Source of the DNA: an uncultured Spirochaetota bacterium
Lineage (GTDB): Bacteria > Spirochaetota > Spirochaetia > SZUA-6 > Fen-1364
Length of the DNA: 64,000 bases
Direction of reading: 5' to 3'
NCBI GenBank assembly: GCA_963734545.1
Contig: CAVTHO010000009.1
Coordinates: forward strand, 146,747 to 210,746
Shown here: positions 4,615 through 43,168 of the stretch, in pieces
Position numbering within the stretch: the first letter of the stretch is position 1
Layout of the letters: each line of letters opens with the position of its first letter
Translations under genes and position numbers: made by a program
Notes under the pieces: generated by a model
The model's database searches: none
The model's input: only the letters and a program-made list of their open reading frames with translations
Told to the model about the DNA's origin: nothing

Positions 4615-4640
4615 TCTGCAACCCCCGGCACAATCAGGGT

Positions 4641-5591
4641 GTGCCAGGCGGTCATGAACGGGAAAGCGCGGGCCACGCCTCCGCGGTACGGGCCTACTAC
4701 GAGAGCAACACGCGGCTCTTTCTTGCGCTCGGCATCGGCAGGCGGACGCTCGCCATCCGGCGGGCCGTGTGGGCGGATGGGGTGGATGATCTCGCCGCGG
4801 CCGTGAACTACGTAAACGGCCTTGTTGCGGCCGAAGCGAGGCTGGCCGCGACAAAGGACGGCGCGCTTCGGATTCTCGATATCGGCTGCGGTGTCGGAGG
4901 CAGCCTGCTCTTCCTTGCCGGCGCGGTGAATACGCCGCTCCAGGGGATCGGCGTCACCATCAGCCCGCGGCAAGCCGTCATTGCACGAAGACAGGCGCGC
5001 ATCCGGGGGCTTTCCTCAAGGTGCTCTTTCATCGCGGCGGATTTCGCGCGCCTCACCGGTCTTCCCCGGTTCCCTCTCTCCTTCGCCATCGAGTCATTCG
5101 TCCATTTCACCGCGCCGGCAGAGTTCTTCACCGCGGCGGCAAGATCGCTTGCGCCGGGAGGACGTCTGATGGTGATCGACGATTTCCTCGCCGGTGACCG
5201 GCATTCGCCCAGGGAACGCGGGCTTGTCAGTGCCTTCCGGCAGGGGTGGCTTCTGCCTTCGCTCTGCACGGTCAGGCGCGCGGTCCAGTGCGGCGCTGAA
5301 TGCGGCATGCGCCTGGTGGAAGATCGCGACCTGAGCAGTTTCCTTTCCCGAAAACCCGCAGGCTCGCGGATAGGAAAACCCGCAGGCTCGCGGATGGGAA
5401 AACCCGCAGGCTCGCGGATGGGAAAACCCGCAAGCTCGCGGATGGGTTGGTGGGCCGTGCGCGTCATGCGCGCGCTTCCCGTGCCGTGGCCTTACTGGAG
5501 AAGCACGATGGGAAGCCTCGCCCTGGAAGCCTGCAGGCGGGCAGGGCTGGTCGAATACCATGTCCTCGTGTTCGAGAACCAGCGGGCATGA
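4641..5591 (+). CDS. Class I SAM methyltransferase (CMAS/RebM/SMT-like N-region) with a C-terminal 8-aa tandem repeat
   Basis: Motif I LRILDIGCGVGGSLLFL follows a YYESNTRLFLALG...AVWADG region typical of small-molecule C-/O-methyltransferases. The in-frame repeat KPAGSR(I/M)G occurs four times. The start is uncertain because the divergent MFS start lies only 26 bp away. Confidence 0.65.
   Translation: MPGGHERESAGHASAVRAYYESNTRLFLALGIGRRTLAIRRAVWADGVDDLAAAVNYVNGLVAAEARLAATKDGALRILDIGCGVGGSLLFLAGAVNTPLQGIGVTISPRQAVIARRQARIRGLSSRCSFIAADFARLTGLPRFPLSFAIESFVHFTAPAEFFTAAARSLAPGGRLMVIDDFLAGDRHSPRERGLVSAFRQGWLLPSLCTVRRAVQCGAECGMRLVEDRDLSSFLSRKPAGSRIGKPAGSRMGKPAGSRMGKPASSRMGWWAVRVMRALPVPWPYWRSTMGSLALEACRRAGLVEYHVLVFENQRA
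5349..5444. repeat. 24-bp tandem repeat x4 (GAAAACCCGCAGGCTCGCGGATGG), in-frame inside the methyltransferase CDS
   Basis: Read directly from the sequence: four near-identical units with 1-2 substitutions. Confidence 0.9.
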
Positions 5592-8840: not shown

Positions 8841-9470
8841 CTACAGCGAGCGGCAGAACCGGACCATCTCCCGAACCGCCTCGGCCATGTTCTGCGCGTA
8901 CGTGCGGCCTGAGCTCTTGCGCGGCTTGAACGAGTGGTCCCCGTCTTCCAGATATGCCACCCGAATCGCGGCAGACAGCGTGTAGCCGGCAATCTCCTCC
9001 CGGGTCCCGAGCGTATCCCGGGTGCCCTGAAGGATAAGCGTGGGGGTCTTGAGATCCTTCAGGTGCGCCACTCGAAGACTGGCCGGTCTTCCCGCCGGAT
9101 GAAACGGGTAGCCCAGGCAGACCAGACCTTTCACACCGAGCCCGTCCGCCACCATGCTGGCAATCCGTCCACCCATCGACCTTCCGCCAATCACCAGCTC
9201 TGACGGCGAGCCGAGCTGATCCACGACGCCGGCCCAGCAATCCTGCAGCACCTTCGGCGCATCAGGGGCGGTTCTCCTGCCCGTCTTTCGAAACTCCTGC
9301 ATGTAGGGGAACTCGAACCTGATCACTTGAATGGACTCACCGACCAGCGCGTGCGCCATTTCTTCCATGGGCGGAGAGTCCATGAGCGACCCGGCTCCGT
9401 GCGCAAGAACCACGCGCAGCCAGGGCTTCCCGGCTTCCGGGGTGTCGATCAGCAAAGGTACAGTACTCAC
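8841..9470 (-). CDS. Alpha/beta-hydrolase fold protein (COG3571-like predicted hydrolase)
   Basis: GRSMGGRIASM nucleophile elbow (GxSxG) and VVLAHGAGS. The probable start is the GTG at 9470, preceded by GGAGGAGG, so the listed ORF is extended at the N-terminus. Confidence 0.7.
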   Translation of the reverse strand: MSTVPLLIDTPEAGKPWLRVVLAHGAGSLMDSPPMEEMAHALVGESIQVIRFEFPYMQEFRKTGRRTAPDAPKVLQDCWAGVVDQLGSPSELVIGGRSMGGRIASMVADGLGVKGLVCLGYPFHPAGRPASLRVAHLKDLKTPTLILQGTRDTLGTREEIAGYTLSAAIRVAYLEDGDHSFKPRKSSGRTYAQNMAEAVREMVRFCRSL

Positions 9471-9534
9471 GCAGCCTCCTCCGCGCCTATGGCCCCGGTG
9501 CCCGCAGTCACTTACATTGGACTGGGAAACAGGG

Positions 9535-11499
9535 ATGGCTATTGAAGAATATCGCCGCAAAAGAGACTTCAGCAAAACACCCGAACCCGAACCGGGAAAG
9601 CTGGACGTCGGGGGAAACAGGTTCGTCGTCCACCGGCACGAGGCGCGCAACCTCCACTATGATCTGCGGATCCAGGCGGGAGGGGTCCTGTCCTCCTGGG
9701 CCGTGCCGAAAGGATTCTCATACGATCCGGTGGACAAGAGGCTCGCGGTAAGGACCGAGGATCATCCGCTCGAGTACACGAGCTTCGAGGGGGCCATTCC
9801 GCGCGGCCAGTACGGCGCCGGTACGATGCGCATCTGGGACGTCGGGGAATACGAGGTGCGGAAAGCCCCCGACATCCATAGAGCAATCGAGAAGGGAGAA
9901 ATCAAGCTCGAGCTGCGGGGCCGGCGATTGCGCGGGGAATGGCACATGGTGCGCACCAAGGGGGGCGAAGGCAGGGACTGGCTGCTTTTCAAGGCCCGGG
10001 ATCGCTACGCCGGGTCCGGTAGCGACTTGTTCGGAGGCGCGGACATGAGCCGGGCAATCCAGAGACCGCCGCTCGGCAGGATTGCCCGAATGGAAGCCTC
10101 GCCCTGGCCGCTGCCCTTCGATGACCCGGACTGGCTTTTTGAACCGGCGCTGGCAGGGAAGCGCGTGCGCGCGTCGATCGACGGCCCTTCGGTCAGCATC
10201 CGGGCCGGGGCGGAAGACCTTGCCCCGGAGCTGCCGGCCGTTGTGGCGGATCTGGGGAAAATACGCGCGGAGACGCTGCTCTTCGATGGTGTTGTCGTCA
10301 CGGGCGAATCAGCGCCTGTTCTGTACGTCTTTGACGTGCTCTACGCCGAAGAATGGGACCTGAGGCAGCTCGCGCTCCGGGAGCGCAAGGCCGTCCTCCG
10401 TTCGCTCCTGCCGGACCTGAAATGCGTATTCCGGGTCGACCCGGTGGCCGAGCGCGGCTCGGCGCTCGCACAGGCAGCCGCCGAATCGGGGCTGTCGGCG
10501 ATTCTGGCCAAGCGCGCGTCGAGCAGATATCAGGCAGGACTCTCGGAGGACTGGCGGCACATACCGGTTACCGCGGCAAAGACCCGGAACCAGGCCAGGA
10601 AGCCTCCCCGCCCGGCCGAGTTTGCAATAACGAATCCCCGCAAGGTGTACTGGCCCGAGCAGGGATACACGAAAGGGGACCTGCTGGCCTACTACGAGCT
10701 GACCGCGGGCTGGCTCCTCCCTTACCTCAAGGACCGCCCCCTGCACATGTACAGGTGGCCGGATGGAATACGGGGCAAGTCGTTCTATCAGAAGCAGCTC
10801 CCCGAGGGAATTCCCGACTGGATCGAGACGGTGGATGTCGCCAAGGCTGGCGAGGAGCCGACGCACTACATCGTCTGCAACGACCGAAGGACGCTGCTGA
10901 CCCTCGTGAACCTCGGGACCATAGACATTCATCCCTGGCTTTCCCGCAGGGGCAGCCTCGATTCTCCGGACTGGGCGATCCTCGACCTGGACCCCAAGGA
11001 GGCTCCATTCTCGAATGTGATCAAGGTGGCGCGCGTCGTCGGCAAGCTCCTGCGGGGGCTCGGCCTCGAGGCCTACCTGAAGACTTCCGGCTCCACCGGG
11101 CTGCACGTCTGCATCCCGTTGAAGCCCGGCTACACCTACGAGCAGAGCCGCATGTTCTGCGAGGCCGTTGCGCGGCTCGTTGTGCGGGACCATGGTGACA
11201 TCGCGACCGTGGAGCGCGTCATGAGCCGTCGCGGGGGCCGGGTCTACGTGGATTTCCTTCAGAACCGAAGGGAGCAGACGGTCGTCCCGCCGTACGTGGT
11301 GCGGCCGGTGGAAGCTGCGTCGGTCTCGATGCCGCTCGCCTGGGACGAGCTCGAAGGGGAGCTGCGCATCGAGGACTTCACGCTGGCCACGGCACCCGCG
11401 CGCATCGAGAAGACGGGAGACCTTTTTCGCACTGCCCTCGGCAAGGGGCAGGATCTTGCGGGGGCCATCGAAGCCCTGGCGCGTTCCCTCGAGGCCTGA
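9535..11499 (+). CDS. ligD: LigD-like NHEJ polyprotein: phosphoesterase (PE) - degenerate ligase-like module - polymerase/primase (Pol)
   Basis: PE motifs are FVVHRHEARNLHYDLR. Pol motifs are ILDLDPKE, KTSGSTGLHVCIPL and VYVDFLQNRREQ. The middle region aligns to ligase motifs III-V (LLFDGVVV, YVFDVLY, ILAKR), but motif I is ALAG where KxDG is expected. ATG at 9535. Confidence 0.85.
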   Translation: MAIEEYRRKRDFSKTPEPEPGKLDVGGNRFVVHRHEARNLHYDLRIQAGGVLSSWAVPKGFSYDPVDKRLAVRTEDHPLEYTSFEGAIPRGQYGAGTMRIWDVGEYEVRKAPDIHRAIEKGEIKLELRGRRLRGEWHMVRTKGGEGRDWLLFKARDRYAGSGSDLFGGADMSRAIQRPPLGRIARMEASPWPLPFDDPDWLFEPALAGKRVRASIDGPSVSIRAGAEDLAPELPAVVADLGKIRAETLLFDGVVVTGESAPVLYVFDVLYAEEWDLRQLALRERKAVLRSLLPDLKCVFRVDPVAERGSALAQAAAESGLSAILAKRASSRYQAGLSEDWRHIPVTAAKTRNQARKPPRPAEFAITNPRKVYWPEQGYTKGDLLAYYELTAGWLLPYLKDRPLHMYRWPDGIRGKSFYQKQLPEGIPDWIETVDVAKAGEEPTHYIVCNDRRTLLTLVNLGTIDIHPWLSRRGSLDSPDWAILDLDPKEAPFSNVIKVARVVGKLLRGLGLEAYLKTSGSTGLHVCIPLKPGYTYEQSRMFCEAVARLVVRDHGDIATVERVMSRRGGRVYVDFLQNRREQTVVPPYVVRPVEAASVSMPLAWDELEGELRIEDFTLATAPARIEKTGDLFRTALGKGQDLAGAIEALARSLEA

Positions 11500-11516
11500 G
11501 CCCGGCCCGGACCGGG

Positions 11517-12728
11517 TCAGTCGTCCGGATCGTCCCTCCCCTTGTACCTGATCAGGGTGAGGTGCATCTCGCTAGGAAACGCTTTGAGGCATTCCGCTCG
11601 ATGAGGGAGCGCCTTGTCGTGCTGACCCGTGCGGGAGAATATGATTGCGAGATTGCAGTGCGCATCCGGATAGCGGGGCTCGAGGGACAGCGCGGTCTGG
11701 TAGGCATGGATCCCCTCGTCATGCTTGCCAATTGCCACCAGGCAATTGCCCAGATTGTTCCACGCCTCCGCGAAACCACGATCGGCATCGATAGCCTGCA
11801 GGTAACGCTCCGCCGCGTCCGCCTCGCGTCCCAGCTCGTAGAGAACATTTCCGAGGTTGAAGAGCGTTTCCGGATCTGGTTCCGCTTCGAGGGCCCGGCG
11901 GTACGCATCCGCTGCCCGCTGAAGATCGCCGCGCTCCTCGGCCTCCACCGCCTCGGAAAACCACCGGCTGTGGCTCTGGTCGCCTTCCGGGAAGATGGAC
12001 ACGCGGGGAGATGTCATCTCCCGCTCCGTGTCGAAATCCATGAGCCTCTGGCCGCTGGGCTCGGCCCAGCCTCCATCCAGCAGCCGGATGCGCAGCCCGC
12101 TGTCATACGCCTCGAGACGCCCGGCAATCTGTTCTCCATCCGGCACCCACTGGGCGATCTCGGAGAGGCTCTGGCGCAGCAGCGCGGTGGAGACTCCGGA
12201 TGCCGTCAGCCGGCCGAGGTTGCGCGCAAGCAGGATGTCCTTGAACTCGAACCAGGCCAGCCGATTGGCCACGCGCGCGGGAGGGAGCAGCCCTCGGCGC
12301 ATCCAGCTGCGGACCACGGAAAGGGGCTCGTCCACGATGCGGCCCACCTGGGCCGCGGTGTACATTCGGGAGATATCGCTCAATTCTCCTTCGGCGCCGA
12401 TCAAGGCCAGGAACTCGGCCTCGTCCACCAGCCGTATGGGTGCCCCCTGTTTCTTCAGCTCGCGGAAGCGCAGCATGTTGCGCGCAATACCCCCGTCCGG
12501 CGTGAAGTGCCCCGTTGCCTGGCCCGCTATGAGAAGCTCCGTGGTGGTCCCTGGCTCGCGCACGGGGCGGCCGCCGGCCCGGGTGATCCGCTGGACCGCC
12601 TCTGCCCTGTCCATGGAGACCAGACGACCGGTGAGCGCCACTTCCCTGCCGGCGAGCGATTCCTGAGGCGGCACTTTTTCCCTGCGCGGTACCCCGCGCA
12701 TTTCTTCTTCCGTCACGACGTCAGGCAT
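11517..12728 (-). CDS. BRCT domain - MerR-like HTH - TPR repeat protein, function unknown, within the NHEJ operon
   Basis: N-terminal LigA-type BRCT (VALTGRLVSMDRAEAVQRITRAGGRPV...ELLIAGQATG...LVDEAEFLALI). HTH is YTAAQVGRIVDEPLSVVRSWMRRGLL. Three or more C-terminal TPRs. Its start overlaps the ligase stop by 8 nt. Confidence 0.75.
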   Translation of the reverse strand: MPDVVTEEEMRGVPRREKVPPQESLAGREVALTGRLVSMDRAEAVQRITRAGGRPVREPGTTTELLIAGQATGHFTPDGGIARNMLRFRELKKQGAPIRLVDEAEFLALIGAEGELSDISRMYTAAQVGRIVDEPLSVVRSWMRRGLLPPARVANRLAWFEFKDILLARNLGRLTASGVSTALLRQSLSEIAQWVPDGEQIAGRLEAYDSGLRIRLLDGGWAEPSGQRLMDFDTEREMTSPRVSIFPEGDQSHSRWFSEAVEAEERGDLQRAADAYRRALEAEPDPETLFNLGNVLYELGREADAAERYLQAIDADRGFAEAWNNLGNCLVAIGKHDEGIHAYQTALSLEPRYPDAHCNLAIIFSRTGQHDKALPHRAECLKAFPSEMHLTLIRYKGRDDPDD

Positions 12729-13617
12729 CCAGAAGCCCCTCGAACACGGGTGCGCGAAGCAATCCCGCTGAGGTGAGCTCAGCGAAGCTTACCGCGCAGA
12801 ACAGGCCCGGCTCAACCCACCTCGCGCGTTCAGGGCAGGACACGAGCGGCGTGTCTCTCGGCCGCTGTCTCAGGAGCGTGTTGATCCTTTCGCGGACCCC
12901 TTCGGTGAAGCCGCCCCCCACTCTCCCGACATAGCGAAGCGCACCTTCCTGCTCTCCGGGAAGGCCGTTGCTCGCCACGAGCAGGCTCTGGAAGTCATCG
13001 CCATCCTTCTCGATATATCCGATGATGGCAACGTGGACCTGGAGCCGCCGCTTGAACTTCACCCAGGCGCCGTTGCGCTTTCCCGCCGCGTATGTGCTGG
13101 AGAGGCGCTTTGCCACGACTCCTTCAAGGCCCTGCTCGCAGGCCATCCGGTACAGCATCTTTCCTTTGGCGCGGACCCCTTCTGAAAGAATCACGCCCGG
13201 ACACGGGGAATCCTTCATGATCTCTTCGAGGACCCCGCGCCTTTCGGAGAACGGCGCGTCGAGCAGGGAGCGGGACGCGCTGTAGAGGACGTCAAACACG
13301 ACAAAGCTGACCGGCCAGGCGCCGGCACCGTGTCTGCTTTGAAGGACGAGCTCGAAATCAGGCTTGCCGTCGCGAAGAACAACCAGCTCCCCGTCCAGGA
13401 CGAGGCCGTCGGGGAGCGCGGCCAGGCCGGCAAGGGACGGGTAGCGCGCGGTGATATCCACCCCGTTGCGGCTCACAAGGCGATGCGCGCCGCGCTCCAC
13501 CAGGGCCTGCGTGCGGATGCCGTCCCACTTGAACTCGAAGAAATGGGCGTCCGAATCGAATGGCTGGCCGAGGACGGCGAGCATGGGGGGCACGAACCGG
13601 GGAAGCGCCTTATCCAA
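12721..13617 (-). CDS. ATP-dependent DNA ligase (LigD ligase-domain type), standalone
   Basis: Motif I EFKWDGIR, motif III LDGELVV, motif IV FVVFDVLY, motif V EGVVAKR, motif VI WVKFK. The true start is uncertain (ATG 13584, GTG 13593 or TTG 13617). The listed ORF start at 13797 overlaps Ku and is unlikely. Confidence 0.85.
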   Translation of the reverse strand: MDKALPRFVPPMLAVLGQPFDSDAHFFEFKWDGIRTQALVERGAHRLVSRNGVDITARYPSLAGLAALPDGLVLDGELVVLRDGKPDFELVLQSRHGAGAWPVSFVVFDVLYSASRSLLDAPFSERRGVLEEIMKDSPCPGVILSEGVRAKGKMLYRMACEQGLEGVVAKRLSSTYAAGKRNGAWVKFKRRLQVHVAIIGYIEKDGDDFQSLLVASNGLPGEQEGALRYVGRVGGGFTEGVRERINTLLRQRPRDTPLVSCPERARWVEPGLFCAVSFAELTSAGLLRAPVFEGLLDA

Positions 13618-14509
13618 CCTTCTTCTTCTTGGTCGTTGCGGCTTTGGCCGGCTTGGCGCTGGGAGCCTGCTTGAGCCCCGCCTTTGCCGCCTGCTTGTCC
13701 TCCACCGTTGCCTGCGCGCCGCTGGCTGCCTGGGCCTCTGCCACGCTGCGCTTGAGGGCCTCCATGAGATTGATGATCTTCGGCTCCTCGGGGTCACGGA
13801 TCTGGACGACTTCCTTCCCCTCGATCTTCATCTGGATCAGCTTTGTCAGCTTTTCCTTGTACACGTCGTGATACTTTGAAAAGTCGAAGCTCTTGATCAT
13901 CGAGGCTTTGATGAGCGTGTCCGCCAGGGACATTTCCGCATCGGACACTTCCGTTTCAGTGATCTCGTCCTTGAACGCGGAGGCGGCCTTCACCTCGTCC
14001 TTCCGGTTCAGAACGGTCATGGCCAGCACCCCGTCTATCGGCCGCAGCATGACCACCTGCTCTTTCTGGGAGATGACCACCTCGGCCATGGCGCACACCT
14101 GGTTCGCCAGCATGCCCTTCAGCAGAAGGTTGTACGGTTTCTGGCCCACGGGCCCGTCCGGCGTCAGGAAGTAGGTCCGGCCGCCCAGGTAGATCGTGCT
14201 GAGGTCCTCCGGCTTGATGAACCCGTCTATCCGGATGGACTTGTCGCTCTCGGTGCGCAGCTTGTCGATCTCATCCTCGTCGATGATGACATACTGCCCT
14301 TTCGAGTACTCGTAGCCCTTGACGATCTCCTCGCTGCTGACTTCACCAACCTCAGGGGCGAACTTCTTGTACTGGATCCGCGTGTGGGTTTTTGCGTGAA
14401 GCTGGTGGAGCGTGATGTCGCTCCCGGTCGACGTGGACGTATATGCCTTGACTGGCACTGAAACCAGGCTGAGCTTCAAGAACCCCTTCCAACTGGCATG
14501 GGCTGCCAT
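13610..14509 (-). CDS. ku: Ku protein (NHEJ DNA end-binding)
   Basis: N-terminus WKGFLKLSLVSVPVKAY matches the Ku core consensus. Lys-rich C-terminal tail (AKPAKAATTKKKKVG). GAGGAGG RBS upstream. Confidence 0.9.
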   Translation of the reverse strand: MAAHASWKGFLKLSLVSVPVKAYTSTSTGSDITLHQLHAKTHTRIQYKKFAPEVGEVSSEEIVKGYEYSKGQYVIIDEDEIDKLRTESDKSIRIDGFIKPEDLSTIYLGGRTYFLTPDGPVGQKPYNLLLKGMLANQVCAMAEVVISQKEQVVMLRPIDGVLAMTVLNRKDEVKAASAFKDEITETEVSDAEMSLADTLIKASMIKSFDFSKYHDVYKEKLTKLIQMKIEGKEVVQIRDPEEPKIINLMEALKRSVAEAQAASGAQATVEDKQAAKAGLKQAPSAKPAKAATTKKKKVG

Positions 14510-14708
14510 GAACGCCTCCTCGTACTGCCGTCACAGCGGGATGGGACACGGTCGTCGGCTCCCCGAAGCGGCCATACCTTCCCAATTCACTAAGGTATTG
14601 TCGGCATATTTCGAAGTCAACTTCCTGGGACCGGGAAGCGCCTGGCGCGCATGTGTGCACACACGGAGGCGAATACAGGGGCAGGCCCGCACGAGAAATC
14701 CAGGATTC

Positions 14709-14737
14709 TTGACACATAAGGTAGGAATTCATACGAT
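14709..14737 (+). promoter_or_regulatory. Sigma70-like promoter upstream of vapB (TTGACA-17-TACGAT)
   Basis: Near-consensus -35 and -10 hexamers with 17-bp spacing, 7 bp before the vapB ATG region. The surrounding sequence is locally AT-rich. Confidence 0.4.
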
Positions 14738-14743
14738 ATTGGT

Positions 14744-14965
14744 ATGAAAACAACGGTCTCGGAAAAGGGCCAGGTCACCATCCCGAAGGCAATTCGGGAC
14801 AAGCTGGGTCTCCGGCCCGGTACAGTCCTGGACTTCGATGCAATAGAGGGGAAGTTGATAGGAGTGAAAAAGGAGCAGGATGACCGCATCGGCCGATGGC
14901 TCGGCAAGGGATCCCTTCCCGGCGCGCTTTCCGTGGACGACTATCTGCGGCGGATCCGCGGATGA
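14744..14965 (+). CDS. vapB: AbrB/MazE-fold antitoxin (VapB-like)
   Basis: SEKGQVTIPKAIRDKLGL swapped-hairpin motif, 73 aa. Its stop overlaps the downstream PIN gene start (ATGA). Confidence 0.75.
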   Translation: MKTTVSEKGQVTIPKAIRDKLGLRPGTVLDFDAIEGKLIGVKKEQDDRIGRWLGKGSLPGALSVDDYLRRIRG

Positions 14966-15373
14966 TCACCGCAGTGGACAGCTCCGTCATCCTTGACGTG
15001 TTGACCGGGGACCAGGGCAATACGTCTGCGAGCCTCGCCGCTCTGCGAAAAGCTTCGCGGGAAGGCCGGTTGATTGTCAGCGAGAGTGTGGTTGCCGAGG
15101 TTCGGCCGGTATTTGAATCCAATTCCCTCTTCGAGGAGTTTCTGGGGGACTGGGGCCTGGAGTTCATGCCCTCCACGCTGCGCAGCTCGATCCGGGCGGG
15201 CGAGATGTTCCGTCAGATGCTGGCACGGAAGAAAAAGCAGGAGGGCAGGATACTGCCCGGATTTCCTTATTGGCGCGCACGCGCTCGAACACGCTGATCG
15301 ATTGCTTGCCAGGGATCGGGGTTTCCTGCGCGACTACTTCACCGAGCTGGCCCTCTGGGACCCGTCGCGATAG
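14962..15373 (+). CDS. vapC: PIN-domain toxin (VapC-like), reading frame interrupted by a -1/+1 shift near 15230-15265
   Basis: N-terminus [17 protein letters not shown] (PIN Asp) in one frame and C-terminus [22 protein letters not shown] (PIN C-terminal motif) in another. The junction lies near an A5 run. Confidence 0.6.
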
Positions 15374-15416
15374 CCCGCCTGGGAGGGACGCAGGATTGAG
15401 AGACAAAAGGGAGCTG

Positions 15417-16025
15417 ATGCAACTGGAGCTTGCCGAATGGCGCAGACTGACAGGGGAGCTGTATGCGGCGGTACGCACGTCCTCCACGGGAGAGGGCGAG
15501 CAGGCGTGGAGAGCTTTTGTGAACACGCGGAGCGAAATGTTCCGCGCCCACCCTCAATCGCCGCTTACTGCCCGACAAAAGAAGACCTTCCAGGCGCTGC
15601 TCTACTTCCCGTACAATCCGGCCTGGCGATTTCAGGTCCGGGCAGAGCCTCTCGAGACCGCGGCCGCTGCCCGATCGCTGGCCGTCGATCTGCCGGAAGG
15701 AAAGGCCGGTCTCCTGCCTTTTGCGCACGTCCACTTTGCCTCTGTGCAGCTCACGCTGTACTGGATCGAAGGGTACGGTGGGGGACTCTTCCTGCCTTTC
15801 AAGGACAGGACGAACGGCACCGAGACATACGGCGGGGGCCGCTATCTGTACGACACGATCAAGGGCGCGGACCTCGGAGCCGGTCCTGACACGATGCTGC
15901 TCGACTTCAACTTCGCCTACAATCCCTCGTGCGCATACAGCCCGCAGTGGACGTGTCCGCTCGCGCCTGCGGAAAACAACCTGCCGCTGCGTATCGAGGC
16001 GGGAGAGCTTGCTTTCGAAGGGTGA
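15417..16025 (+). CDS. DUF1684 family protein
   Basis: Conserved GGGLFLPFKD..NGTETYGGGRYL...DFNFAYNPSCAYS..W.CPL signature. ATG at 15417 with an AAGGGAG RBS. Confidence 0.8.
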   Translation: MQLELAEWRRLTGELYAAVRTSSTGEGEQAWRAFVNTRSEMFRAHPQSPLTARQKKTFQALLYFPYNPAWRFQVRAEPLETAAAARSLAVDLPEGKAGLLPFAHVHFASVQLTLYWIEGYGGGLFLPFKDRTNGTETYGGGRYLYDTIKGADLGAGPDTMLLDFNFAYNPSCAYSPQWTCPLAPAENNLPLRIEAGELAFEG

Positions 16026-16029
16026 GCGC

Positions 16030-16731
16030 CTATCGCGAGGCCCGCTTCGGCGCTGCCCGCCGTGTGAGCTCCCTGGGCGGCGGCGGGGTGAGGCCTTTGG
16101 TTACCCGCGTCCCGATGGATTTCATCAACGGCCCCACGACCTTCTTGAATGGAATAGCAAGCGGATAGTCGTGATTGTACGGCGCAGCCCAGTGCCGCCC
16201 GATGAGGGTCGCGTAGACCGACAGGGTCTGCTTGGCGGCCATGAAGTCCCGCGCGCTGAGAATCTCGTCGGCAAGTCCGAACGGGATGCTCCGCATGAGC
16301 GAGCCCCGCGCGTACTCCACTGCCCATACTCCATCCGTGAAGTTCATGCCGCAGGCCTGGCCTTTGCCCACGAAGATGCGGTCTCCCGGTCGGTACACCC
16401 GCTTTTCGAACTGCCCCTCGGCGTAGTACCAGGTCTCCCCGTCGATCACCGTGTCCCAGAACGCCACGCGGTGGCGCCCCGAGTGGCCTTCGGAACCGAT
16501 GGGGGTGCCCCAGATCATCACGTACTCCTGGAGCGACGCGAAGTAGAGCTTCATCTGGATCATCGCGCCCCCTGCAATGCTGTAGATCCAGGGCTGGCTG
16601 TTGTCGATATGGCCCGGGTAGCGCTCCTCGACCGCCCGCGCGAACACATCGAACATCTCCGGCTTGCGATGGCCCAGACAGGCCATGGCACACTCATCGA
16701 TCACCTCGGGGTCGAAAATGTATCTCTTCAT
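16030..16731 (-). CDS. ERG2 / sigma-1 receptor family protein (soluble, no N-terminal TM)
   Basis: Clear similarity to sigma-1R/C-8 sterol isomerase: AGGAMIQMKLYFASLQEYVMIWGTPIGSEGHSGRH...WAVEYARGSLMRSIPFGLADEILSARDF versus human SIGMAR1 [35 protein letters not shown]...[28 protein letters not shown]. Confidence 0.85.
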   Translation of the reverse strand: MKRYIFDPEVIDECAMACLGHRKPEMFDVFARAVEERYPGHIDNSQPWIYSIAGGAMIQMKLYFASLQEYVMIWGTPIGSEGHSGRHRVAFWDTVIDGETWYYAEGQFEKRVYRPGDRIFVGKGQACGMNFTDGVWAVEYARGSLMRSIPFGLADEILSARDFMAAKQTLSVYATLIGRHWAAPYNHDYPLAIPFKKVVGPLMKSIGTRVTKGLTPPPPRELTRRAAPKRASR

Positions 16732-16787
16732 GGCTCTCCTCGCATGACACACATGGTAGCCGAGCTTGCATAGGTTGGCAAGGTACT

Positions 16788-18047
16788 CTATGAGATCATC
16801 CTGGCCAGGAACTTCGAACGGAAGGTGTTCCCCATCACCACCCGCTGAACGGGAGGAAGCGCAAGGAACGCCCCCACCACGGCACGGAGAAAGCGATGGC
16901 TCGCAAGGTTGGGATTGTTGAAAAGGAAATTCTGCAGAGTGCCGCGTTCGAGCGCCTGAAGCACAACTCTTTCGACCGTATTCTCGGGCAGGAGGACCCT
17001 CTGTCCGCGCGGGACGAGACGCATTGCTTTCTTCCGGCAGGCAAGACCGCACACCCCGCAGCCGATGCAGAACGTCGAGTCCACGGCAGGCTTCCGGGTC
17101 GCCGGCGTGCTGTCACTCATCTGGATTGCATCAATCGGACAGGCGTCGGCGCACCTCCCGCAGCCCGCGCAGAGCGCGTTATTGCATTCGGCAATGAAGC
17201 GTGATGTCACAAGGATGTTCGGATACCCGAACTTCCTTATTCCGTTGAGGACGGTGCAGCAGCACTTGCAGCAGAGACAGATGAACTGGACGTCCCGCCG
17301 GACATTATCCGCGTTCAGGACGAGCCTCATTTCCTTTGCCCGCGCGAGCAGCTCATGCAGCTCGCTCCTCGATACCGGCCGGGCAAGATTCCTGCGCACC
17401 GCGTAGTCGACGTCCCGCCCGAAGCTCACGCACATCTCCAGCGGGCTCTCGCAATTCTTCTGGCCCAGGTGGAGCATCTTGTGCCGGCACGAGCAGATGC
17501 CGACCGCCGCGCCGGGTGCCTGATCAACCAGGGCGCTTGCTTTCTCATGGTCCAGCACTTCAACGTGCGGCGATGCAACCGCGTCAACGTGGGGGATGGT
17601 GCGCAGGACCGATACTTTCTGACCACGTCCGAAATTGGCTTTGAGGAACTCGTCGCTTCCCAGCAGGTAATCCTTGAAGAGCTTCGCCATGCGGGCAAAA
17701 TCAAGCTCGCCGTCCGTGCGCATCATGGTGTATTCGAAAATCCCGATGACCATGGGCGAGACGGTGTAGTGGAACTCATCACCGATCTCGAGGTCCATGA
17801 CCAGCCCCTTTGCGGCGAGTCTTTCCAGCGCCCGGCGAAGTTTCTCCACCTCGATGCCCGTGATCTGTCGAAGACGCGGAAGTGTCGTGAGCCCCGCGGG
17901 TATCCGGGAAACGAGCTCCGCCTCCTCGACGGTGTACAGCTCACGCAGGACCGCGCGGAGAGCCTCGTTCCATGGAGTGCGGACGGTGAGCCCGTCGATT
18001 GCAGTGCCCAGATCCCGGTAGACATCCTTGGATGCGAGATGACCCAT
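16788..18047 (-). CDS. Fe-S protein with two C-terminal 4Fe-4S ferredoxin-type clusters and an N-terminal winged-helix-like region
   Basis: CAGCGRCADACP and CIGCGVCGLACR CxxCxxCxxxCP motifs, plus an unusual CLCCKCCC run. The ATG at 18047 lies 2 nt after the upstream MFS stop, preceded by GGAGG. Confidence 0.7.
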   Translation of the reverse strand: MGHLASKDVYRDLGTAIDGLTVRTPWNEALRAVLRELYTVEEAELVSRIPAGLTTLPRLRQITGIEVEKLRRALERLAAKGLVMDLEIGDEFHYTVSPMVIGIFEYTMMRTDGELDFARMAKLFKDYLLGSDEFLKANFGRGQKVSVLRTIPHVDAVASPHVEVLDHEKASALVDQAPGAAVGICSCRHKMLHLGQKNCESPLEMCVSFGRDVDYAVRRNLARPVSRSELHELLARAKEMRLVLNADNVRRDVQFICLCCKCCCTVLNGIRKFGYPNILVTSRFIAECNNALCAGCGRCADACPIDAIQMSDSTPATRKPAVDSTFCIGCGVCGLACRKKAMRLVPRGQRVLLPENTVERVVLQALERGTLQNFLFNNPNLASHRFLRAVVGAFLALPPVQRVVMGNTFRSKFLARMIS

Positions 18048-18049
18048 GT

Positions 18050-19306
18050 CTAGCCTCCGGCTGTCTCGGCCGCCGGGCTCTTTCGTGAACCTGCCACGAG
18101 CGCCAGCACCGCGCCGGCCGCAAAGAGGACGATATTCAGAACAAACGGCAGGTCCTTGTTCATGCCGGAGAGAGTTCCGGCAATCCATCCGAACGGTGAC
18201 GTGAGCAGGATGATGCCCACGGCAAGAATCGACAGAATACGGGCGCGTTCCTTCGCGCTTATGGTCAGCACGGTCATCCTGTCCACGAGCGGATTGACGG
18301 CGGCAAAGCTGCACGCTTCCAGGACAACACTGACAATGAGAGAAGGATATCCGTGTTCGGGGGTGGTGATCAGCACCACCTGGCTCGCGACAAACCCGAG
18401 AAACCCGACAACCATCGGCACCTTGAAGTGCATCTTGTTCAGGCGCGGCATCAGGACAATGAAGAATGCGATCATGAAGGCGGATTTGATAAAGGGAAAA
18501 ATGGCAATGCTCTCGGCAGGGAAATGCAGCTTCTCTGTTACGATAATCGCCCAGAAGGTGCCGCTGATCAGGCTGGAAATGCTGAGCACGAGCATAATGC
18601 CGGCGGTAAGCAGGGTCCATGGAGTGCGCACGAGCTCGGACAACACGTGCCTGTACTCGCGGAGCACGTGGAACATGCTCTGATTGCGCGTCTCCTGCAG
18701 ACGGATCTTCCCCTGTGCGGTCTCTTCAGTGATTACATATGTCACGATTGCTTTGACCGCAAACATAAAAGCCGCAAACAGATACAGGCCGCGCATGGTG
18801 GGAATAAGCGAAAAGATGCCGATCAACACCCCTGCCAGCGGCGCGATGAACCCCACGATCAGGTTCGCAATGTAGATCCAGGTGTAGATATCCACCAACT
18901 GACGGGGGTCGGCATCCTCCACCAGCAGGCACGACCATGAATTATGGGTGATGCGCCAGGCGCTGTTGACAACGCCCGCAGCCAGGAAATACCAGAAGTT
19001 CTGCGCCAGTGCCGAGATCAAGGACGGGACCGTCCACGCCAGTATGTCGAAGATCAGGGTGGTGCGGCGGCGTCCCAGCTTGTCGGTCAATACTCCGCTC
19101 AGCAGGGCAAAGGCGATCTGGAACCCCCAACTGATGCTGAGGATCAGGCCGATCTGCCTGTCCGCCAGGCCGAGGGATACCATGTAAATAGAAACATAGG
19201 GGATGTATAGATTGTAGGGGATGGCCCACAAGGGCTCGGTATAGACGCACCCGCGCGGGTTCCCGCGCAGGCTTTTCAGAGTGATGATGAGGGAATGGTC
19301 ATTCAT
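18050..19306 (-). CDS. MFS transporter
   Basis: Twelve TM segments and the motif-A-like LTDKLGRRRT. Probable start at MNDHS (19306). The listed ORF has a long, implausible N-terminal extension. Confidence 0.75.
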   Translation of the reverse strand: MNDHSLIITLKSLRGNPRGCVYTEPLWAIPYNLYIPYVSIYMVSLGLADRQIGLILSISWGFQIAFALLSGVLTDKLGRRRTTLIFDILAWTVPSLISALAQNFWYFLAAGVVNSAWRITHNSWSCLLVEDADPRQLVDIYTWIYIANLIVGFIAPLAGVLIGIFSLIPTMRGLYLFAAFMFAVKAIVTYVITEETAQGKIRLQETRNQSMFHVLREYRHVLSELVRTPWTLLTAGIMLVLSISSLISGTFWAIIVTEKLHFPAESIAIFPFIKSAFMIAFFIVLMPRLNKMHFKVPMVVGFLGFVASQVVLITTPEHGYPSLIVSVVLEACSFAAVNPLVDRMTVLTISAKERARILSILAVGIILLTSPFGWIAGTLSGMNKDLPFVLNIVLFAAGAVLALVAGSRKSPAAETAGG

Positions 19307-19402
19307 TACGTGTATGCGGAAGTATGGAGCGAAATTGACTCCCGCGTCCACGGCACATACTATGGTCCAGAGGGTCACCGGGAGCCGGCAGTCATCGAAT
19401 CG

Positions 19403-20227
19403 ATGGAATCGACCGTCCAAGATCTTGCGCATCTCATGCGGGGCCGCAGGACGCTGGTTCTCAGCGGGGCGGGAATCAGCACGGAGTCGGGAATTCCAGA
19501 CTATCGCGGCCCGAATGGTTCCCTGCGGACGCGCCACCCCATGCAATATCACGAGTTCGTCGGATCCGCGGAAGCGCGCCGGCGATACTGGGCTCGCAGC
19601 GCGATCGGCTGGGCCCAGGTGGGCAAGGCCCTGCCCAACAGGGGCCATGCCGCCATCGCCCGACTCGAGCAGCTCGGGGTCGTCACCGGTGTGATCACGC
19701 AGAACGTCGATGGCCTGCACCAGGCGGCAGGAAGCCGCCGGGTGCTCGAGCTGCACGGCTCGCTCGCGGAAGTCCGCTGCTTGTCGTGCGGTTTCTTGGA
19801 GATGCGCGACCACCTGCAGGGCCGGCTTCTCGAGGAAAACCCTGGATGGGCTTCCTCGCCGGTTGAGGCGGCCCCGGATGGGGACGCCGAGATACCACTT
19901 GAAACCGTGGCTTCCTTTTCGATTCCGAGCTGCCTCCGGTGCGGAGGAGTCCTCAAGCCGGATGTGGTATTCTTCGGTGAGAGCGTGCCCAGGCCCCGAG
20001 TGGAGGCCGCATGGGGCATGCTGGCAGAGGCGGGGTTGCTCCTGGTTGTCGGCTCGTCTCTGGCGATTTTTTCCGGGCTCAGATTTGTGCGCCAGGCGGC
20101 CAGGGAGAACAAGCCTGTGGCCATCGTGAACCAGGGAGATACCCGGGGGGACGAAGTGGCAGCGGTCCGGATAGGAGGGCGCCTGGGTGACGTCCTCCCC
20201 TCGCTGCTGGACGCATTGGAGGGGTGA
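19403..20227 (+). CDS. cobB: NAD-dependent protein deacylase (Sir2 family sirtuin)
   Basis: GAGISTESGIPDYRG, QNVDGLH, HGS and a CxxC...CxxC zinc ribbon (CLSCG...CLRCGG). Start is approximate; the listed start at 19295 would overlap the divergent MFS gene. Confidence 0.8.
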   Translation: MESTVQDLAHLMRGRRTLVLSGAGISTESGIPDYRGPNGSLRTRHPMQYHEFVGSAEARRRYWARSAIGWAQVGKALPNRGHAAIARLEQLGVVTGVITQNVDGLHQAAGSRRVLELHGSLAEVRCLSCGFLEMRDHLQGRLLEENPGWASSPVEAAPDGDAEIPLETVASFSIPSCLRCGGVLKPDVVFFGESVPRPRVEAAWGMLAEAGLLLVVGSSLAIFSGLRFVRQAARENKPVAIVNQGDTRGDEVAAVRIGGRLGDVLPSLLDALEG

Positions 20228-20247
20228 TCGAAAAAAGGAGCTGAAAC

Positions 20248-20835
20248 ATGATGTCGCATCCATTCAAGTGGGTTTCGGAGTCGTCGAGAAAAACGGTCTT
20301 CTGGGTCCTCTTTGGCCTCGCAATACTATTGATGATCGCCCTCCAGGTCCTCGGAGCGCCTTTGAAGACACAGGCCGCGCCGGCAGGAATCGTATCATTC
20401 GAGCTTGCGGGAAGCATCAATGCCGCTGAAAAGATCGTGAGCTCGTGGGACGGGCAGGCAAGGACGTACGCGGGCCTCAACCTGGGACTCGATTATCTGT
20501 TCATTTTCGCGTATGCGGGCGCGATCGGACTGGGGTGCGCTCTTCTTGCAGCAAGCGTTGCCAGGCGCCACAAGGTATTTGCCTCCATTGGATTTGTTCT
20601 CTCCTGGGCACAGCTCCTCGCCGCGGCATGCGATGCAACAGAAAACTACGCGCTCATTTCGCTTCTCCTGGGGTCCAGGGTCAATGGATTGGCCCTTCTT
20701 GCCCGTGCGTGCGCAATACCGAAGTTCCTGATCGTGCTGCTCGGGCTCGCTTACTTTGCCTTTGCCCTCATCGTCCTGCTCGTCTGGGCGGCCCGTCGGA
20801 AGCAAAATCTGCCCTCCGGGATGCAAAGGCGGTAA
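20248..20835 (+). CDS. Membrane protein, hypothetical (4-5 TM)
   Basis: Strong AAAGGAG RBS. Hydrophobic segments only; no recognisable motifs. Confidence 0.5.
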   Translation: MMSHPFKWVSESSRKTVFWVLFGLAILLMIALQVLGAPLKTQAAPAGIVSFELAGSINAAEKIVSSWDGQARTYAGLNLGLDYLFIFAYAGAIGLGCALLAASVARRHKVFASIGFVLSWAQLLAAACDATENYALISLLLGSRVNGLALLARACAIPKFLIVLLGLAYFAFALIVLLVWAARRKQNLPSGMQRR

Positions 20836-20903: not shown

Positions 20904-21933
20904 ATGAAGGCCCTGGTGAAAAAAGGCCCGGGAAAGCGGCTGGAGATGCAGCAGGTCCCGATGCCCGTGGTCGGGGGCAACGATCTGTTGATCCGGGTTA
21001 CCAAGGCCGCCATCTGCGGCACCGACCTGCACATCTGGAACTGGGACGAGTGGTCGCAGCGCACCCTTCGGCCTCCTCTGATCACGGGACACGAGTTCGT
21101 GGGACGGATCGTCGACATGGGCGCCAAGCGTCAGCGGCTACGAGATCGGCGAGCGCGTCTCCGGCGAAGGCCACATCGTCTGCGGCGTCTGCAGGAGCTG
21201 CCGCGCGGGGCGCCGGCACCTCTGCACCAACACGGTCGGCATCGGCGTGAACCGTGACGGCTGCTTTGCGGAGTACCTCTCCCTGCCCGCGCCGAACGCC
21301 TGGCACGTGCACCCGGGGATCCCCTCGGAGATCGCCTGCTTCCTCGACCCGCTGGGAAACGCCACGCACTCTGCCCTCTCCTTCGACCTGGTGGGAGAGG
21401 ACGTTCTGATCACGGGAGCGGGGCCCATCGGCATCATGGCGGCGGCCATCTGCCGGCACTGCGGCGCACAGCGGATCGTCGTCACGGACGTCAACGACTA
21501 CCGCCTGGGGCTTGCTGCCAGGATGGGGGCCACCATGACGGTGAACGTGTCCCGGACCTCCATCGAGGATGCGCGGAAGGAGCTGGGGATCATCGGGTTC
21601 GACATCGGCCTGGAGATGTCGGGAAACGGCGCGGCGTTCGAGTCGATGCTGGAGAACATGTACCACGGCGGGCGTATCGCGCTGCTGGGCATCCTTCCCA
21701 ACTCGACGGGAATCCGCTGGGACCAGGTGATCTTCAAGGGCCTGGTCATCAAGGGGATCTACGGCAGAGAGATCTTCGAGACCTGGTACAAGATGCAGAC
21801 GATGCTGCAGAGCGGGCTCGACGTGAGCCCGGTGCTCACACACCGGTTTCCCTTCGAGCAGTTCGAGAAAGGGTTCGAGGTCATGCAGTCCGGGCAGCTG
21901 CGGCAAGGTGATCCTCGAGATCGCGGAGGATGA
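20904..21933 (+). CDS. tdh: L-threonine 3-dehydrogenase, with an apparent +1 frameshift near 21128
   Basis: Collinear with E. coli Tdh: [10 protein letters not shown]...[16 protein letters not shown], then [32 protein letters not shown] in the next frame. A single extra base near aagcgtc explains the shift. TATAAT lies 14 nt upstream of the ATG. Confidence 0.85.
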
Positions 21934-26351: not shown

Positions 26352-27981
26352 ATGGTGCACAGCATCGCCATCGCCGATGTCCCCTCCACCACACCCCTGT
26401 TCGCCGATTTCTGGAAAGGAAAGGAAACCTTTCGCGGCCTTCTTCCCCGGCATTTCATGGATCCGCGCGCCTTCTCGGAGCAGGCCGGCCTGCTTGCCCG
26501 CGCCCGCTACGACCGCGGCACGCTGTGCACGGTGCTCCGCGAGCAGAACGAAAGGTTCGGCGCGGGCGCACAGACGCTGCGGTCCATCGACGCGCTGGAG
26601 GGGCCCGGCTCCATGGTCGTGATCGGAGGTCAGCAGGCCGGGTTGTTCGGCGGCCCCCTCTACACGGTGCACAAGGCCCTGACGATCATCGTGCTCGCCC
26701 GCAGGATGGCGAAACAACTGCGACCGGCCGGTGATCCCCGTGTTCTGGATCGCCTCCGAGGACAGCGATCTCGCGGAGGTGAATCACACCTTCGTTGTCG
26801 ACAGGGACGGTCGGCTGCGGGAGCTTCGTCTGCACGAAGCGGTGGAAGCGAAGCTTCCGGTCTCCCGTGTGCGCCTCGGGGAGGAGATCGGGCCGCTCAT
26901 GAACGAGCTGGCCGCCGCGCTTCCCGAGGCAGATGGCGCGGAGAATGTACTCGCCGACCTGCGGGCGGCGTACGCCCCCGGCCGCACCTATCCGCAGGCC
27001 TTCGGCTCCTGGATGACGAATCTCTTCGGCGAGCAGGGACTGGTGCTCGTCGATCCTTCCGATGTCCGGCTGAAACGGATGGCGCATTCGCTTTTCGAGC
27101 GCGAGATCAGGGAGAACAGCCCGGTGAGCGCCGCGGTCATCGCGCAGACCCGCCGGATGATCGAGGCGGGATACGCGCCGCAGATCGAGCTGCGGGAAGG
27201 GTTCCTCACTCTTTTCCACCAGGACCCTGCCCGGCAGGCCATCGCGCTCCGCAGGAACGGATTCGAGCTGAAGTCGACCGGGAAGACCTTTACAGCGGAG
27301 GAGCTCGCCGGTCTCCTGGAGCGCAGCCCGGAGAGCTTCACTCCCAACGCGGTGCTGCGTCCCCTGTACCAGGACACGCTCTTTCCCACGCTGGCTGCGG
27401 TCCTCGGTCCATCGGAGATCGCCTACTTCTCACAGCTCACGCTGGCCTATGAGCGGATGGGCATCCCGATGCCGATCGTTTTTCCCCGCTCCTCCCTCAC
27501 CCTGGTGGAACCGAAAATGGAGAAGCTCATGGCCAGGCTCGGCGTGGGCCTGAGGGACCTCCTCGTGCGCGGGGAACGAATAATCGACGACATATTGAAG
27601 AGAGACATTCCCGAGTCCCTCACCACGCGGGTCATGGAGGGCAGGGCCTCTGTGACGGCAGCCTGGAAAACGATCATCGGCGAGATCGACACGCTTGATC
27701 CCACGCTGCATCGGACGGCGGAACTGGGATCAGGCAGGGCCCTGCGCCAGTTCGATTTCATGGAAAAGAAGATCGCGCAGGCAGCCCGGAAAAAGAACGG
27801 GATCCTCCGCGGGCAGGTGGAGAGGCTCGTCGCCGCCCTGGCGCCCAGGAACGGCCTGCAGGAGAGGACGCTCACGGCGCTCCCCTTTCTTGCGCGCTAC
27901 GGAAAACAGATTCTCACCCAGGCAGCGGAAGGCATCGATCCGTTCGCCCCCGAGCACAGGGGGCTGGTGGTGGATCAATGA
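26352..27981 (+). CDS. bshC: Bacillithiol biosynthesis cysteine-adding enzyme BshC, with an apparent frameshift near 26725 (CCGG duplication)
   Basis: N-terminus and MVVIGGQQAGLFGGPLYTVHKALTIIVLARRMAKQL in frame 0, then PVIPVFWIASEDSDLAEVNH and the rest of BshC in frame +1. Removing one CCGG restores R-P-V-I. Confidence 0.8.
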
Positions 27982-28700
27982 CGCTGGACATACTGGCATT
28001 CGGCGCGCATCCGGATGACGTGGAGCTGGCCGCGAGCGGTACCCTGATCAAGGCGGGACGCGGCGGCGCGAAAACGGGCGTGATCACCCTCACCCGCGGA
28101 GAGATGGGCACGCGCGGCACTCCCGCCGCGCGGGCGGCTGAGTTCGAGGCGGCAGGTGACGCGATGGGTCTCACTCATCGGGAAATGCTCTCCCTGCCGG
28201 ACGGCAGGCTGGCCCCGGACCAGGGGGCAAAGGAAGCCGTGGTTCGGGAGATCAGGGAGCATCGGCCGCGCATCGTCCTTCTGCCCTATTGGGAGGACAG
28301 GCATCCCGATCACGGCGCCGCTTCACGCATCATCCAGGAGGCGGCATTCCTGGCGGGACTTCGCAAGCTGGAAACCGGCCAGGAGCCGCACCGCCCGTCC
28401 GAGCTTGTCTACTACATGGCCAGCTGGGAGTTCGAGCCGAGCTTTATCGTCGATATCAGCGACGTGATCGAGGACAAGATCAAGGCGATCCAGGCATACG
28501 GCACGCAAGTGCACAATCCGGGCTACGCGGGGAACGAGCCGCCCACCTTCATCTCCAGCCAGCACTTCCAGGAGCTGCTCATGACCCGCATGGCCCACTA
28601 CGGACACCTCATCGGAAAGAAGTACGGGGAGCCCTTCCGCATCAAGGGTCTGATCGAGGTGAAAGACCTGCTGGAGTCTTTCGGAAGCCGGACGTTTTAG
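27978..28700 (+). CDS. bshB: LmbE-family N-acetylglucosaminyl-malate deacetylase
   Basis: LAFGAHPDDVELAASGT and HPDH zinc-binding motifs of the PIG-L/LmbE family. Its start overlaps the bshC stop (ATGA). Confidence 0.85.
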   Translation: MTLDILAFGAHPDDVELAASGTLIKAGRGGAKTGVITLTRGEMGTRGTPAARAAEFEAAGDAMGLTHREMLSLPDGRLAPDQGAKEAVVREIREHRPRIVLLPYWEDRHPDHGAASRIIQEAAFLAGLRKLETGQEPHRPSELVYYMASWEFEPSFIVDISDVIEDKIKAIQAYGTQVHNPGYAGNEPPTFISSQHFQELLMTRMAHYGHLIGKKYGEPFRIKGLIEVKDLLESFGSRTF

Positions 28701-43163: not shown

Positions 43164-43168
43164 CGGGC

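Follow-up and report, generated by a model that had tools for sequence, protein, structure and literature searches.

An anchor-less bacterial member of the ERG2/sigma-1 receptor family is encoded in a 64,000-nucleotide stretch of DNA from an uncultured Spirochaetota bacterium of soil or peat (contig CAVTHO010000009.1, hereafter the window), and the most informative result of its comparative analysis is a cross-phylum association of this anchor-less subfamily with genes for an SRD5A-type steroid 5α-reductase, a 3β-hydroxysteroid dehydrogenase-like (3β-HSD-like) enzyme and a classical short-chain dehydrogenase/reductase (SDR). Given its fold, an acidic site that is intact, and partners of steroid type, all of which suggest an enzyme that shifts a ring double bond in a steroid-like substrate, we propose, with a probability of about 0.5, that the 233-residue protein is a double-bond isomerase for steroid-like substrates, cytoplasmic or peripheral to the membrane, which would act in a reductive ring-modifying pathway rather than in sterol synthesis, and that its immediate context of a major facilitator superfamily (MFS) transporter and an Fe-S protein is probably uninformative. 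The isomerase activity, the substrate class, the binding to the membrane surface and the independence from the Fe-S and MFS genes are what we infer in this proposal. The steroid hint itself comes from the neighbours in related genomes, beyond the view of the window from which the original prediction (an earlier annotation of the same DNA) had been made. The gene and the codons of its three key site residues are located as follows.

16030–16731, minus strand: ERG2/sigma-1 receptor-like coding sequence (233 aa, PF04622 match), the third of three same-strand genes
16522–16524, minus strand: codon of Tyr70, equivalent to human sigma-1 receptor Tyr103 of the ligand pocket
16453–16455, minus strand: codon of Asp93, equivalent to sigma-1 receptor Asp126
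16315–16317, minus strand: codon of Glu139, the counterpart of Glu172, which is the key acidic residue at the binding/catalytic site of the sigma-1 receptor

The membership in the ERG2/sigma-1 receptor family, originally suggested from motif similarity, was borne out by a profile search, which returned Pfam PF04622 (ERG2_Sigma1R; E 5.3e-45, 153.8 bits with a cut-off of 21, profile positions 20–202 of 210) and not an unrelated cupin family, by matches to the crystallised human and Xenopus sigma-1 receptor chains in PDB (E 5e-30 to 2e-29), and by the predicted fold. The homology to the receptor thus stands, while its extent had been underestimated (~175 residues instead of ~130); the identity to sigma-1 receptors is 33–36%. 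An AlphaFold2 model built from a 150-sequence alignment (pLDDT 96.3, pTM 0.90) predicts a cupin-like barrel with three C-terminal helices. Foldseek placed this model on 42 sigma-1 receptor chains with a root-mean-square deviation of 1.2 Å (TM score 0.72–0.83), a superposition spanning 176–184 residues of the human and Xenopus receptors (5hk1, 6djz and 7w2b among them), and the next matches were generic small cupins with a TM score of 0.35–0.38 on the query. The matched receptor entries include those with bound progesterone and dehydroepiandrosterone (DHEA) sulfate.

The N-terminus of the protein corresponds to receptor residue ~34, where the cytosolic domain of the receptor begins, and no transmembrane-like stretch was found along its sequence (maximal 19-residue Kyte-Doolittle value of 1.09 versus 2.24 for the human receptor), in agreement with the missing N-terminal transmembrane helix claimed earlier. 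Past the C-terminus of the receptor, the model adds a confident helix (aa 190–214, net charge +5) followed by a basic, proline-rich tail. A cytoplasmic or membrane-surface location is suggested because the N-terminal anchor is missing; as modelled, the protein would be cytoplasmic and may sit on the membrane surface via the C-terminal helices and the basic tail.

The alignment with the human receptor equates its Y103, D126 and E172 with Y70, D93 and E139 of the ERG2-like protein. The motifs HSGRY, WAEI and SDTIISG of the human sequence used here are confirmed in the literature (PMC12398221), and the sequence is consistent with the PDB matches. Of 120 aligned family sequences, counting the query and the human receptor beside 118 representatives, 115 have a tyrosine at the Y70 position. 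Among the aligned homologues from 80 genomes, all three residues fall in blocks that are at least 80% conserved; this applies to the motif FWDTVIDGE around Asp93, and Glu139 is nearly invariant. Most columns of the subfamily barrel (residues 45–165) show an identity of at least 80% over four phyla. Such an extreme conservation of the barrel interior, as read from the sequences, fits catalysis and is compatible with binding as well. The set of Tyr, Asp and Glu could in principle be compatible with an acid or a base mechanism. In the wider family alignment one branch carries Phe ('YFE') at the position where the ERG2-like protein and the receptor have Asp ('YDE'); by comparison with yeast ERG2, we take this branch to be the fungal-type ERG2.

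The family had been described in the original prediction as overwhelmingly eukaryotic, which is contradicted by the bacterial representation found here. A word-indexed search for close relatives yielded 739 protein clusters at 90% identity, many of them named 'C-8 sterol isomerase' in IMG, and a scan of species-representative bacterial genomes yielded 92 matching stretches, of which 80 loci were kept for the neighbourhood work; this puts the subfamily in at least 92 bacterial species genomes. The carriers (with taxon labels taken from the record titles) include Spirochaetota, Anaeromyxobacteraceae and other Myxococcota, Micromonosporaceae (with the cultured Rugosimonospora africana and R. acidiphila) and other Actinomycetota, as well as Dehalococcoidia and Chloroflexia of the Chloroflexota; termite-gut genomes, including those of Spirochaetaceae and Bifidobacteriaceae, are also among them. 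For the superfamily as a whole, a HMMER search over 1.84 billion cluster representatives returned 672 with E ≤ 0.001, many of them likewise anchor-less. Bacterial ERG2 homologues have been recorded in Plesiocystis and Mycobacteria (PMC2817430), C-8 isomerase genes have been described in bacterial sterol producers (PMC10202945, PMC13277303), and it has been stated that 'the evolution of ERG2 is complex' (PMC8237579). No publication specific to PF04622 in bacteria or to the anchor-less subfamily was found in the literature searched.

When all open reading frames (ORFs) up to 7 kb from the homologue were clustered for the 80 loci, three neighbours recurred: a classical SDR (adh_short), an extended SDR (Epimerase/3Beta_HSD) and a membrane protein of the steroid 5α-reductase family PF02544 (SRD5A). 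Of the 80 loci, 61 have at least one of these no farther than 3.1 kb from the homologue and 49 have one at 300 bp or less, the background for the same queries being 3 matches in 694 kb of the same loci at distances of more than 4 kb from the homologue. By group, module genes occur within 3.1 kb in Myxococcota (33/35), Chloroflexota (6/6), Actinomycetota (11/16) and Spirochaetota (10/22). The arrangement is compact in an Anaeromyxobacteraceae locus with independent gene calls and precomputed Pfam assignments (L090): here SRD5A, 3β-HSD-like and SDR form a packed operon that runs convergently towards the ERG2-like gene and overlaps with it. The SRD5A and 3β-HSD-like extended SDR genes of Rugosimonospora africana are similarly convergent on it; in Myxococcaceae, several Actinomycetota and Dehalococcoidia an SDR gene is located 33–163 bp upstream of the homologue on the same strand. 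An extended cluster is found in another peat spirochaete (L081–L084), comprising a convergent SDR gene, then an aldo-keto reductase, an MFS transporter, five more SDR/3β-HSD-like genes and a TetR regulator; counted over positions 12965–20486, downstream of the ERG2-like/SDR pair, the dense redox genes are five SDRs, two 3β-HSD-like extended SDRs, the aldo-keto reductase and the MFS.

The SRD5A neighbour matches a bacterial steroid reductase structure (7c83, E 2e-86) and human SRD5A2 (7bw1, E 1e-51), and only weakly the enoyl-CoA reductase type. The upstream extended SDR of Anaeromyxobacteraceae scores best with HpnA, at 247 bits, and with the sterol demethylase SdmB, at 210 bits; neither score reaches the curated cut-offs. 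A bacterial SRD5A/DET2 homologue, that of Treponema denticola, is reported to reduce steroids (cited in PMC11301207), and a homologue from Leifsonia rescues the Arabidopsis det2 mutant, its role in bacteria being stated as unknown (PMC11131428). No description of an association between ERG2 and SRD5A was found in the literature searched. Overall, a link of the ERG2-like protein to steroid chemistry is plausible. The steroid/terpenoid connection voiced in the original prediction is retained, on the grounds of neighbours in related genomes; the in-window context that had been offered for it is unsupported, and no cyclase was found in the window or near the homologues examined.

The proposed reaction may be outlined as follows. 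A hydrophobic polycyclic substrate of a steroid or triterpenoid type would be held inside the cupin barrel, where Glu139, Asp93 and Tyr70 would carry out a proton transfer that moves a ring double bond, either from Δ5 to Δ4 (as in Δ5-3-ketosteroid isomerase, KSI) or between Δ8 and Δ7 (as in ERG2). The partners across bacteria would be NAD(P)H enzymes, namely the classical SDR, the extended SDR of 3β-HSD/HpnA/SdmB-like type and the steroid 5α-reductase of SRD5A1/2 type. Isomerization would then be a step in the reduction of rings A and B, from a 3-hydroxy-ene via a 3-oxo-ene to a saturated 3-oxo and finally a 3-hydroxy compound, with a dehydrogenase, the isomerase, a Δ4-reductase and a ketoreductase acting in this sequence. 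The substrates would be sterol-like lipids that are taken up or scavenged, with no de novo synthesis; a modification of acquired sterols or triterpenoids, rather than an O2-dependent synthesis, is suggested by the anaerobe lineages among the carriers and by the cyclase-free neighbourhoods.

An isomerase of this kind is the most economical function to assume by likeness to fungal ERG2, which shares with the bacterial protein the family and the residues equivalent to Glu172 and Tyr103. The fungal enzyme differs in the presumed Phe at the Asp93 position, in being membrane-anchored and in operating within an O2-dependent sterol pathway, whereas no sterol-pathway genes were found near the window gene or its homologues (window and 91 loci). 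KSI, with its Tyr/Asp/Asp site, is the isomerase that acts after a 3β-hydroxysteroid dehydrogenase and before a Δ4-reductase. By analogy in function only, the ERG2-like protein may be its counterpart; KSI (NTF2 fold) is unrelated to it in fold and sequence. The animal sigma-1 receptor (SIGMAR1; 5HK1, 6DJZ, 7W2B, 8W4B) shares with it the Pfam family, the barrel with flanking helices, the Tyr/Asp/Glu constellation and a similar hydrophobic pocket; unlike the receptor, it is bacterial and predicted to be cytoplasmic, has no N-terminal transmembrane helix, carries the extra C-terminal helix with the basic, proline-rich tail, and has relatives clustered with oxidoreductases. The receptor is a ligand-regulated membrane protein of the endoplasmic reticulum that is not known to have an enzyme activity.

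Several observations weigh against the proposed function or limit its application to the window organism. The SDR, 3β-HSD-like and SRD5A partners were not found in the 64-kb window (tblastn, E 1e-3), and among the 22 Spirochaetota loci 10 have an SDR and none an SRD5A gene, so that a steroid module may not exist in the window organism at all. The gene is an orphan member of its subfamily in the window; either its partners are located elsewhere in the genome or the protein works alone. SDR and extended SDR are broad families, and the best NCBIfam scores of the neighbours all fall below the curated cut-offs. The isomerase function would be an extrapolation from what fungal ERG2 does; the ERG2-like protein has its D126-type site in common with the animal receptor, and the latter is not known to be an isomerase. 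In addition, the shared strand and the gaps of 2 bp and 56 bp in the window would allow the gene to be transcribed together with those of the Fe-S protein and the MFS transporter in this lineage.

Two other functions can be envisioned for the same protein. The name given to many relatives in IMG and the PF04622 membership itself would suggest a canonical C-8 (Δ8 to Δ7) sterol isomerase of a de novo bacterial sterol pathway, and homologues do exist in sterol-producing Myxococcota, methanotrophs and a Calothrix strain (PMC2817430, PMC10202945, PMC13277303). The sterol producers (Plesiocystis/Enhygromyxa, Methylotuvimicrobium, Calothrix) share with the window subfamily the possession of sterol isomerase homologues (PMC2817430, PMC10202945, PMC13277303, PMC8237579), but their isomerase genes reside in genomes or clusters with oxidosqualene cyclase (OSC), CYP51 and demethylases, whereas the window subfamily has no adjacent cyclase in the examined loci, has lineages known as anaerobes among its carriers, and is accompanied by SRD5A, 3β-HSD-like and SDR genes. 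No ORF resembling squalene-hopene cyclase (SHC) or OSC was detected in 1.57 Mb (window and 91 loci) by tblastn with an SHC query and by a cyclase motif scan independent of that query; Pfam scans of the 35 window ORFs, which represent housekeeping and assorted genes, revealed no cyclase, P450 or other sterol-pathway family. The carriers include Dehalococcoidia, termite-gut Spirochaetaceae and Bifidobacteriaceae. Lineages known as anaerobes, such as Dehalococcoidia, are thus represented, and sterol synthesis requires O2. With the receptor-type site (Asp at the D126 position rather than the fungal-type Phe) and the missing membrane anchor also speaking against it, we consider the C-8 isomerase function highly improbable.

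A non-catalytic ligand-binding protein, receptor- or chaperone-like, for example a carrier or sequestering protein for steroids or hydrophobic amines, would account for the receptor-type Asp/Glu pair and the 33–36% identity to sigma-1 receptors, whose crystal structures 8w4b and 8wue hold steroids in the same pocket. This function appears unlikely in view of the tight cross-phylum clustering with three oxidoreductases, which suggests a pathway enzyme; the extreme conservation of the barrel interior also fits catalysis, though it is compatible with binding too.

One could suspect that the gene is contamination, or that it was acquired only very recently from a eukaryote and serves no purpose in the bacterium, given that the family was first known from eukaryotes and is patchily distributed among bacteria. 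However, the ratio of nonsynonymous to synonymous substitution rates (dN/dS) of the gene with respect to the nearest relative (L001) is 0.042 at a dS of 0.58, compared to 0.11–0.16 for four neighbouring genes, which means that the ERG2-like gene evolves 3–4 times more slowly. The GC content at its third codon positions (GC3) is similar to that of the neighbours and the host, the Spirochaetota copies group together as a single clade by neighbour-joining (BLOSUM distances), and the best eukaryote-type matches are only ~35% identical. A contamination or very recent transfer is unlikely because of the low dN/dS, the host-like codon GC and the single Spirochaetota clade, and synteny is also kept in two independent metagenome-assembled genomes. 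We regard this explanation, which the original prediction had itself named, in combination with a genome lacking a terpenoid cyclase, as an outcome that would overturn it, as extremely improbable. The very low dN/dS implies that the protein is in use; on the evidence of the sequences, the gene is functional, native to the genome and under strong purifying selection.

The gene order and coordinates of the MFS, Fe-S and ERG2-like ORFs are as originally placed, the convergent DUF1684 gene is present and the CLCCKCCC run of the Fe-S protein is real.

16788–18047, minus strand: Fe-S protein coding sequence (419 aa; Fer4 dicluster at aa 289–345, CLCCKCCC at aa 257–264)
18050–19306, minus strand: MFS transporter coding sequence (418 aa; PF07690, E 8.6e-24)
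15270–16025, plus strand: DUF1684 gene, convergent on the ERG2-like gene (PF07920, E 4e-40)
16732–16787, minus strand: gap of 56 bp between the Fe-S and ERG2-like genes, containing a ribosome-binding site (AGGAGAG) and paired sigma-70-like hexamers

The stop codon of the MFS gene is separated by 2 bp from the start of the Fe-S gene, which in turn is followed after 56 bp by the ERG2-like gene; the ribosome-binding site lies 5' of the ATG of the latter. A sigma-70-like pair TTGCCA-17-TACCAT at 16781–16753, before the ERG2-like gene, is a predicted promoter identified by consensus match only. The end of the DUF1684 gene, the true start of which is probably downstream of 15270, is 4 bp from the ERG2-like stop codon, and a Sir2 deacetylase gene diverges from the MFS gene. 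When the window Fe-S, MFS, DUF1684 and Sir2 proteins were used as tblastn queries against the 80 related loci, homologues turned up in no loci other than L001 and L078, which are the nearest two relatives; the ERG2-like match in L078 is truncated (116 aa). The DUF1684 gene and the Fe-S/ERG2-like pair are kept in L001/L088 and in L078. An insert of ~840 bp, with an ORF called on the opposite strand, separates MFS from Fe-S in L001/L088.

The shared strand and narrow gaps, the retention of the Fe-S/ERG2-like pair in these relatives, and the presence of an MFS gene in the oxidoreductase cluster near the homologue of the other peat spirochaete would be compatible with the three genes forming one working unit, in which a hydrophobic substrate would be imported, reduced or sensed for redox state, and isomerised or bound. 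We find this doubtful. The arrangement is missing in 78 of the 80 other genomes and interrupted by the insert in L088, a promoter-like site precedes the ERG2-like gene, and the slower evolution of this gene sets it apart from its neighbours. The Fe-S protein has more than 1000 homologues, and its members examined in other genomes (55% and 65% identical) appear solitary: neither an MFS nor an ERG2-like neighbour was found beside the family member in the three other genomes checked (L085–L087). The ERG2-like homologue of the other peat spirochaete is monocistronic. The operon of the original prediction thus holds as a description of strand and spacing, with a conservation limited to L001 and L078, while its reading as a functional unit is not supported, given the solitary occurrence of the Fe-S family in the three other genomes checked and the promoter-like site. 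The arrangement is recent, at approximately the genus level, and probably says nothing about function; the Fe-S protein is probably not functionally tied to the ERG2-like gene, which appears to be independent of both the Fe-S and the MFS genes.

The Fe-S protein deserves a mention in its own right. It belongs to an uncharacterised family of ~420 aa with the Cys pattern CxC-x11-C-x6-C, CxCCxCCC and two ferredoxin motifs; 18 cysteines, including those of the CLCCKCCC run, are invariant among 114 homologues. The only known-domain match covers the ferredoxin dicluster (Fer4) part. The conserved N-terminal ~180 residues have no Pfam match, and the gene is usually solitary.

Two further window genes had been put forward as signs of sterol-like lipid modification:

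1987–3411: family 1 glycosyltransferase (GT1) gene with Glyco_transf_28 and EryCIII-like_C domains, generic
4557–5591: methyltransferase gene, generic class I (CMAS 30.6 bits with a cut-off of 27, marginal)

Both genes are present, while their sterol-specific interpretation does not hold, as they are generic and more than 10 kb from the ERG2-like gene, beyond a GH5 cellulase and a Ku/LigD end-joining set; they were rejected as pathway partners on the same grounds. The non-homologous end-joining set (9331–14509) is complete and consists of LigD phosphoesterase and primase-polymerase (9331–11499, plus strand), a ligase-like ORF (~12721–13827, minus strand) and Ku (13610–14509, minus strand), with a MerR-TPR protein gene (11517–12788, minus strand) in its midst, and the same set flanks the locus in L088. 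Between Ku and DUF1684, a PIN-domain (VapC-like) ORF and a small ORF before it (14720–15297, plus strand) resemble a toxin-antitoxin pair. Three genes appear to be split into two overlapping ORFs each, those of a threonine-dehydrogenase-like zinc-dependent alcohol dehydrogenase (20904–21933, plus strand), alanyl-tRNA synthetase (43136–45017, plus strand) and a P-type cation ATPase (47331–50394, minus strand), which suggests indel errors of the assembly; pseudogenes are less likely. A bshC gene beside that of a PIG-L-type deacetylase (26683–28700, plus strand) suggests bacillithiol synthesis in this spirochaete-like genome. As the profile is matched by BshC only from position 120 on, the ORF may be truncated. 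In L088/L089 (3819–5015) of the closest relative, a gene of the RuBisCO large-subunit family, probably encoding a RuBisCO-like protein, is found next to genes of a zinc-dependent alcohol dehydrogenase and an ABC transporter, upstream of the Sir2-MFS region.

For the window alone the result is modest, an orphan gene copy with neighbours that provide no explanation for it. The sigma-1 receptor is a drug target, with a continuing debate about what its natural ligand is and which activity is ancestral; expression, crystallisation and assays should be easy with a bacterial relative that is soluble and highly conserved and has the same pocket. The repeated occurrence beside genes for a steroid 5α-reductase and for dehydrogenases of steroid type provides a testable hypothesis for the role of the bacterial SRD5A/DET2 homologues and suggests a candidate microbial route from sterols to stanols. 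Extending this further, and quite speculatively (we would bet against it as a whole), the anchor-less sigma-1 receptor-like proteins might be the isomerase of an undescribed bacterial pathway that, together with the SRD5A-type 5α-reductase, the 3β-HSD-like dehydrogenase and the SDR, would convert environmental sterols or 3-oxygenated triterpenoids to saturated stanol-type products in anoxic soils, peat and guts. If true, sterol hydrogenation in these environments could be attributed to particular organisms and genes, and the receptor-type (Asp126) branch of the family would be shown to have catalytic activity, offering a tractable soluble model of the steroid pocket of the animal receptor.

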